NCBI RefSeq assembly: GCF_016026235.1
Contig: NZ_CP065613.1
Length of the DNA: 64,000 bases
DNA from: Escherichia coli
Lineage (GTDB): Bacteria; Pseudomonadota; Gammaproteobacteria; Enterobacterales; Enterobacteriaceae
Reading direction: 5' to 3' (one strand)
Positions 5,508 to 5,895 of this stretch are shown here, one piece after another. A program made the translations under genes and the position numbers. Positions within the stretch are counted from its first letter, which is position 1, and the number at the start of each line of letters is the position of its first letter. The notes beneath the pieces were generated by a model, which ran no database searches, was not told the DNA's origin, and worked only from the letters and a program-made list of their open reading frames with translations.

Positions 5508-5895
5508 TTAGCACGTAAAATCAGTAACGGCTGGAAATCATTCAATACTCGCACTATCGGAAGTTCACCAGCCAGCCGCAGCACGTTCTTGCATACGACG
5601 TGTCTGCGGTCTCAACTCCGCCCGCCCCCGCCAATCATGATTGGGCAGTACCAGTACAGCACTAGCAAAGACAGGAAATTAGCAGTCTCAGCAAAACACC
5701 GACCAGACGGTGAGAAGACAAAAAGATACGCAAAGATGCCGCGGTTCCAGAAGAATAAAAAACCGCTAATGGACAGCCTCCTTAACACAGTTTTTTATAT
5801 ACATGATTCACTGATACCAGTGGCATTAATAGCTATTATATAGCTTCAGCTCCTTTTTTCATACCTTAAGGAAAAATTGCCCCCTCCCCCAAAAA

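Follow-up and report, generated by a model that had tools for sequence, protein, structure and literature searches.

A perfect 14-bp palindrome upstream of ipaHd lies at the end of a tmRNA gene fragment in a probable relic of an ssrA-type attachment region in an Escherichia coli prophage

The perfect 14-bp palindrome CCAATCATGATTGG, found upstream of ipaHd in a prophage of Escherichia coli, is with high probability the meeting point of a 3'-terminal fragment of the tmRNA gene ssrA and the adjoining arm, both being parts of a vestige of an ssrA-type attachment region of approximately 140 bp. The DNA analysed, referred to as the window, is a stretch of 64,000 nucleotides, and the features discussed are compiled in Table 1.

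Table 1. Coordinates of the palindrome and of the features in its surroundings (positions in the window)
Feature	Position	Strand	Basis or remark
Truncated 5' part of yecE	4901..5011	+	Marks the chromosome/prophage junction
DinI-like gene	5259..5507	+	Pfam PF06183 (DinI), E = 1.1e-19
dinI-downstream element with strong hairpin at 5577-5608 (CGCAGCACGT...ACGTGTCTGCG)	5514..5610	+	MFE hairpin; 3' end is the mosaic junction
tmRNA (ssrA) 3'-end pseudogene fragment	5606..5633	+	Alignments: GCGGTCTCAACTCCGCCCGCCCCCGCCA vs native GCGGGTTCAACTCCCGCCAGCTCCACCA
Palindrome CCAATCATGATTGG	5631..5644		CCA 5631-5633 plus ATCATGATTGG 5634-5644
Arm/trailer	5634..5748	+	Homologous to the DNA after E. coli ssrA and to the phage-side arm of LLS and phiNP
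Phage backbone continuation	5749..5842	+	Common to ipaH-free UTI89-type prophages
MxiE box GTATCGTTTTTTTACAT	5896..5912	+	One mismatch to GTATCGTTTTTTTAnAG
ipaHd cargo gene, 583 codons, intact	6108..7859	+	ipaHd annotation in a 100%-identical EIEC record
Prophage tyrosine integrase	50253..51425	+	Pfam Arm-DNA-bind_2 and Phage_integrase

The initial annotation of the window had described the palindrome as lying in non-coding, AT-rich DNA between a dinI-like gene and ipaH. Its perfect symmetry and its placement are confirmed, with a DinI-family ORF (5259-5507) on one side and the intact ipaH (6108-7859) on the other. The setting is only partly as described. No coding-looking ORF is present in the region of the palindrome, although the surrounding DNA is a tmRNA 3'-end gene fragment rather than anonymous spacer. 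It is not AT-rich, as positions 5608-5748 have a G+C content of 53% and an AT-rich stretch (36% G+C) starts only at about 5749. In the window, CCAATCATGATTGG occurs exactly once, and a relative with two mismatches is located at 1359-1372. Six perfect 14-bp palindromes are found in the window, against 4.15 ± 2.06 expected from first-order Markov simulations. A perfect palindrome of this length is not beyond chance here, and the window shows no excess. A second perfect 14-bp palindrome, GATTTTTAAAAATC, is located at 5003-5016, exactly at the truncation of yecE and thus at the chromosome/prophage junction, and may be part of the yecE att core.

Positions 5606-5748 align with the 3' end of E. coli ssrA and the DNA that follows it, with an identity of approximately 81-83%. 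The first part of this segment, 5606-5633, matches the T-arm, the 3' strand of the acceptor stem and the CCA, in register with the gene end. When positions 5480-6110 were compared by megablast with 5,426 complete E. coli genomes, the partial matches fell into two families: the end of dinI leads to prophages, and the segment from about 5608 to 5748 leads to the annotated ssrA gene end with about 83% identity. The ssrA 3' end with the flank that matches 5606-5748 is present in thousands of E. coli genomes. At locus L001, where nothing is integrated at ssrA, the gene is annotated at 2163-2525 and an identical 14-mer is found at 2523-2536; the gene end reads ...GGGTTCAACTCCCGCCAGCTCCACCA, directly followed by ATCATGATTGGACGG.... 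The same arrangement with an identical 14-mer is present at the CP4-57 attR of AML002_ev03, where the gene content looks K-12-like. Judged by alignment, the CCA of the palindrome (5631-5633) is the 3'-terminal CCA of tmRNA, and ATCATGATTGG is made up of the first 11 nt of the flank or arm. The window thereby shares with the native E. coli ssrA 3' end and the ssrA-ypjA spacer the identical 14-mer at the gene end and 81-83% identity over about 140 bp. In contrast to the native locus, it holds no more of the gene than its last ~28 nt, which are joined to the hairpin downstream of dinI, and the segment is situated inside a prophage, 477 bp upstream of ipaH, and not beside smpB or ypjA.

The tmRNA fragment is diverged and is not a functional gene. 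Within the core of about 28 nt, the window copy carries five differences (four substitutions and a 1-nt insertion), and everything 5' of the T-stem is missing. ARAGORN detects no complete tmRNA at the site and finds only a tRNA-Met in the window, and no tmRNA is returned by an Rfam scan of 4800-6400 at E ≤ 10. A fragment without a complete tmRNA is what is expected of an att relic. The tRNA-Met gene is located inside the prophage, at 34055-34130 on the minus strand.

The arm that follows the CCA is 81-83% identical to its native E. coli counterpart, 80% identical to that of phage LLS and 75% identical to that of phage phiNP. It contains (G/A)AC(A/G) motifs phased at 11 bp, which in native DNA (L001) are located at 2536/2547 and 2587/2598/2609 and in the window at 5695/5706/5717. 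These motifs are kept from Escherichia to Photorhabdus and Proteus, and their phasing suggests that they are candidate arm-type sites of an integrase. In other copies, the arm is closed by a terminator hairpin, which has a common form but a different sequence in E. coli, LLS and phiNP; this terminator is missing from the window copy.

The mosaic junction between the hairpin element and the tmRNA fragment is located at approximately 5606-5610, some 20 bp upstream of the palindrome, and the homology to more than 100 Stx and lambdoid phages stops at 5609/5610 in megablast. The suggestion that the palindrome might be a recombination scar is roughly right in that its surroundings are the relic of an attachment region derived from a tmRNA gene end, but the palindrome itself is not the junction. 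The hairpin element was also considered as the sRNA CssrB (RF02799). It scored 23.8 bits (E = 0.028) against a gathering threshold of 76 bits, with only the terminal hairpin 5577-5608 aligning, on the minus strand, and 101 model positions missing, and this candidate was rejected. An Rfam miRNA match in 4800-6400 (E ≤ 10) is spurious. In other prophages, a second, direct copy of the ~95-bp element is located beyond the cargo locus, and copies were noted at L059 5332-5425, L057 6562-6597, L058 6585-6772 and 7759-7792, and L003 5791-5859. In addition, 24 of the 30 ipaH paralogue loci are preceded by the element at a distance of about 280 bp, and the sequence after it is there the reverse complement of the Rfam consensus of CssrB, a Shigella sRNA. 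From the placement of these copies, the element looks like a repeated border of cargo cassettes. Within the window, neither the hairpin element nor the yecE att core was found a second time.

Upstream of the dinI-like gene, a CTGT-N8-ACAG sequence at 5228-5243, which we take to be LexA-box-like, is located directly downstream of a promoter-like TTGACA-18-AAAAAT (5194-5223). The dinI-like gene is probably SOS-regulated, as far as can be judged from these elements. At the other end of the prophage, the integrase lies beside the rest of yecE (DUF72, 52860-53585) and not beside the ssrA-like segment. No direct repeat of at least 14 bp from 4950-5260 is found at that end, where an IS-like ORF at 51815-52633 intervenes. 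This ORF is one of three of equal length (272 aa; 37156-37974, 48223-49041 and 51815-52633, all on the plus strand), which probably represent a single insertion sequence in three copies.

Phages that integrate in ssrA carry a closely similar arrangement. A megablast against phage records matched the dinI part only, and a more distant blastn search gave the phages LLS, phiNP and Ayreon. In Escherichia phage LLS (PQ299149), the homologous stretch is annotated as 'tmRNA pseudogene' and attP and is located just downstream of xis/int. An identical 14-mer is found at the end of this pseudogene (L054, 3526-3539), inside a 42-bp block that is identical to native E. coli ssrA. The record of Citrobacter phage phiNP (OR565852) comprises, in this order, the tmRNA 3' end, the same arm, a dinI-like gene, cargo and inverted tail-fibre genes, and has CCACTTTAGACAGG in place of the palindrome. 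In phage Ayreon, the arm adjoins the integrase without a tmRNA part. The gene order of LLS, int > tmRNA 3' end > arm > cargo < tail fibre, is also that of phiNP and of ssrA prophages of Mangrovibacter and Superficieibacter. The window has the same order and orientation, namely yecE junction, dinI > tmRNA-like > arm > ipaH > < tail-fibre assembly < tail fibre. Thus, the attP regions of LLS and phiNP share with the window a T-arm-to-CCA fragment followed by the same arm of ~115-130 bp, placed and oriented alike, with the integrase end on one side and the cargo/tail-fibre end on the other. Unlike these, the window has no adjacent integrase of the ssrA type, its core is diverged, its terminator is lost, and the prophage resides in yecE. 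LLS and phiNP represent the working form of the attachment arrangement, whereas the segment in the window is a relic.

A comparison across genera distinguishes the ends of the palindrome from its inner bases. A scan for tmRNA 3' ends in one genome per species gave at least 120 stretches (L065-L184), in which the sequence after the CCA was read. Among the listed ssrA 3' flanks of about 120 species of Gammaproteobacteria, a few families recur, namely the P4/CP4-57 type AAATTCTCCATCGGTGATTACCAGAG..., the GGACAGTG..AGGACA type and the CCGGATACGTCCGG type. This pattern would fit a flank that is usually supplied by the last element integrated at ssrA. The window flank belongs to the family GGACAGTG..AGGACA...AAAACAGGAAGTTAGC..., whose members adjoin the ssrA end in Photorhabdus, Xenorhabdus, Proteus, Arsenophonus, Rosenbergiella, Lelliottia, Mangrovibacter, Superficieibacter and E. 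albertii. Where cargo and inverted tail-fibre genes come next, as they do in several of these, this order identifies the flank as the phage-side arm of an ssrA prophage. In 17 flanks of this family, from at least 10 genera, the CCA and a GG are invariant, but the nine columns that separate them rank with the least conserved. In most genera, including Photorhabdus, Xenorhabdus, Proteus and Arsenophonus, only two to five of the seven palindromic pairs are formed. As only the ends of the palindrome are conserved across genera, its symmetry is regarded as accidental, a feature of the Escherichia-type variant between two conserved elements. Of ten aligned copies of the E. coli type, eight have an intact palindrome, the exceptions being UTI89 (CCATTCATGATTGG) and HG994850 (GGATAATGATTGG). 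The ATGATTGG half is invariant in all ten copies and may be under some constraint.

The dinI-like gene, the hairpin, the tmRNA 3' fragment and the arm form a module that is present in at least 515 of the 5,426 E. coli genomes. This count is based on the junction between hairpin and tmRNA fragment (query 5570-5700), which is covered by at least 80% in these 515 genomes; junction copies identical to that of the window are found in only about ten. Sampled copies of the module belong to prophages at prfC, dusA, bioA-ybhB and yecE. The module is followed by unrelated cargo, including an OLD-like nuclease, DUF4236 with DUF2971, DUF4145, a type II RM pair, an AAA ATPase, and ompT with an acetyltransferase and a hydrolase, so that ipaHd is one cargo among many. 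A cargo hotspot between the module and the tail-fibre genes was noted in L003, L057-L063, L185 and L186, and in L058 the retron Ec48 is located just upstream of the module. The boundaries of the cargo vary: its start is located behind the palindrome in L057, behind the terminator in L003 and at about 5843 in the window. The last of these boundaries is derived from the UTI89 prophage, which has no ipaH and in which L059/L063 are homologous to window positions 5191-5842 with 92% identity. Since this homology ends at 5842, the ipaH cassette begins at approximately 5843, about 200 bp past the palindrome. Since an ipaH-free prophage shares 5191-5842, the palindrome is part of the phage backbone rather than of the ipaH cassette. 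Locus L032, with an ipaHd identical at 100%, lacks the palindrome and is identical to the window downstream of 5791. In L032 (2300-2797), what is presumably an IS1 terminal repeat abuts the equivalent of window position 5790/5791. The absence of the palindrome from L032 looks to be explained by this IS1-like end, which separates ipaHd from the dinI/ssrA-like module.

The proposed origin of the segment starts from the way in which ssrA-integrating phages preserve their target. Such phages carry the 3' end of the gene together with the arm and the terminator behind it, and the gene is thereby restored on integration. They must supply the ssrA 3' end and plausibly also the downstream terminator, and a plausible supply of the terminator by the phage would explain why the arm ends in a hairpin of conserved form. 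The prophage lineage would then have exchanged its integrase/att module, residing now in yecE and, in its relatives, in prfC, dusA and bioA. The old ssrA-type segment would have stayed behind in the lambdoid backbone, with the dinI-like gene on one side and the variable cargo locus on the other. We infer such an order of events, in which an old attP is left after a module swap, as against a hybrid site arising from recombination of a phage into a prophage. The outer bases of the palindrome would be fixed by unrelated constraints, the CCA being the tmRNA end and the GG being the start of the first GGAC(A)G repeat, while the inner bases would merely happen to be self-complementary in the Escherichia-type variant. 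The GGACA-type repeats are those that we infer from their sequence to be putative integrase arm sites. The palindrome would have no specific role for ipaH, which would have been inserted about 200 bp downstream and would be driven by its own MxiE-box promoter.

Several searches bear on this origin. No ssrA-specific integrase adjoins the segment in the window, where the integrase at 50253-51425 adjoins the yecE junction. The attR predicted at ssrA (dinI-hairpin/ssrA 3' end/native flank/ypjA) is present in none of the 5,426 E. coli genomes, so an ancestor of the type int > dinI > attP(ssrA) is not observed. A P4/CP4-57-type arm on hairpin and core is likewise found in 0 of 5,426 genomes, while occupancy of the LLS type would look like the module itself. 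With neither the predicted attR nor a P4/CP4-57-type junction, the segment looks inactive, a relic rather than an active site. In some prophage copies, runs of 43-60 bp match the native chromosomal sequence with 97-100% identity, which means that exchange with the chromosome has occurred. Such runs are compatible with an attP ancestry and equally with capture of, or gene conversion by, chromosomal DNA. By analogy with the sequences described in PMC8112680, for which capture of chromosomal DNA has been proposed, the segment might also have originated in this way.

Two other roles for the palindrome are each given a very small chance. That it is the binding site of a dimeric regulator controlling ipaH, as had been suggested initially, is extremely improbable, and this reading is largely refuted. 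Palindromes of 14 bp are typical operator shapes, and the perfect dyad symmetry is located 477 bp upstream of the ipaH start codon. However, the palindrome shows no association with ipaH. Of 49 ipaH loci taken from viral contigs, 30 have at least 500 bp of upstream sequence, and the proposed search for the palindrome upstream of other ipaH loci finds it in only three of these, all of them ipaHd orthologues of the same locus with 96-99% identity. It is absent from the other 27, in which the closest match within 1 kb upstream has at least four mismatches. It also occurs at the ssrA locus of E. coli strains without any ipaH, as well as in prophages with other cargo. In addition, it lies upstream of the cassette boundary at ~5843, and the number of such palindromes is at chance level. 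The ipaH promoters are accounted for by the MxiE box, here at 5896-5912 (PMC3299695, PMC9769918). The MxiE box is a known cis element of these promoters, with its role described in PMC3299695 and its motif GTATCGTTTTTTTAnAG quoted in PMC9769918; Table 1 of PMC3299695 lists ipaHd with the same size as the gene in the window, 1752 bp. Like the palindrome, the MxiE box of Shigella T3SS-regulated promoters is short and located upstream of ipaH genes, but the two differ in sequence and position. In the window, the box is found ~196 bp upstream of the ipaHd start codon and ~250 bp beyond the palindrome. Its core GTATCGTTTTTTTA is present in 24 of the 30 ipaH loci, against three for the palindrome, and does not vary in the alignment. 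The palindrome does not resemble the motif and was rejected as an MxiE box. A role at the RNA level is very unlikely, whether as a hairpin that ends or processes the dinI transcript or as a copied 3' processing signal of pre-tmRNA. In the native gene, the palindrome comes immediately after the tmRNA CCA, at a place where the 3' end has to be trimmed, and the arm leads to a terminator hairpin of kept form and varying sequence. Against this stands the weakness of the palindrome hairpin (-3.4 kcal/mol, z = +0.38), which is no better than that of shuffled sequences and is outside the MFE fold of 5570-5650. Its stem CCAAU/AUUGG is followed by GCAGTACC and by no U-run, and the terminator/promoter scan does not report the palindrome, which was rejected as an intrinsic terminator. 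RNAalifold on nine copies finds no covariation (term +0.66), as substitutions break pairs instead of compensating; the nine inner bases are unconserved across genera, and the terminator is lost from the window copy. An alternative pairing spotted by eye, GGTGT/ACACC vs AGTGC/GCACT, was not picked up by RNAalifold.

It is also improbable that the ssrA-like segment is still a functional attachment site in the prophage, be it an 'attB-in-prophage' or a secondary attP, with the palindrome in its core. In that case ssrA-specific integrases would use the segment and ipaH or other cargo would have arrived in this manner, which is equally unlikely. A precedent is provided by lambda-like prophages, which carry chromosome-derived copies of attB with 81-87% identity beside effector loci, and these copies are used by other phages (PMC8112680). 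Nakamura et al. 2021 (PMC8112680) also studied prophages at yecE. Their attB-in-prophage sequences are derived from yecE, ykgJ-ecpE and ompW, and one derived from ssrA is not described there; other phages are integrated in two of the three, and none yet at attB-in-PP_3. As in those cases, the window has a chromosome-like att sequence in a lambda-like prophage beside an exchangeable effector locus. It is 81-83% identical to the ssrA end and flank, lies between dinI and ipaH, and tail-fibre genes follow. A functional site would further agree with the ~83% identity of the segment to the chromosome where it abuts the effector/cargo locus, with the position of the LLS palindrome inside a 42-bp block identical between attP and attB, and with the L058 copy, in which the 60 bp from the T-stem onward do not differ from native ssrA. 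However, the core in the window has five differences in ~28 nt and nothing 5' of the T-stem, and the differing cargo boundaries in L057, L003 and the window are unlike a crossover at a fixed core. Unlike two of the three published sites, the ssrA-like segment shows no occupancy, with 0 of 5,426 genomes having a P4/CP4-57-type junction, and the predicted ssrA attR is also absent. The proposition that the ssrA-derived module is a conserved and still recombination-competent left border of the cargo hotspot, in ~10% of E. coli/Shigella genomes, is likewise improbable. If it were true, the segment would be a fourth, ssrA-type 'attB/attP-in-prophage', and ssrA integrases would shuttle ipaH and anti-phage defence cassettes between lambdoid prophages.

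The attachment-region relic remains the preferred reading, and the regulator site is not supported. The palindrome would then be an accident of sequence at the end of a tmRNA fragment, which matters little in itself and makes no case as an ipaH operator. For ipaHd, the cassette boundary proper is placed at about 5843 and the promoter element proper, the MxiE box, at 5896-5912. In the yecE-located ipaHd prophage, an ssrA-type attachment region persists as a fossil, and in about one tenth of the complete E. coli genomes the same fossil is found at the upstream edge of a cargo locus that varies widely. Among the att-like sequences known from effector-carrying lambdoid prophages, it represents a further example, derived from ssrA.
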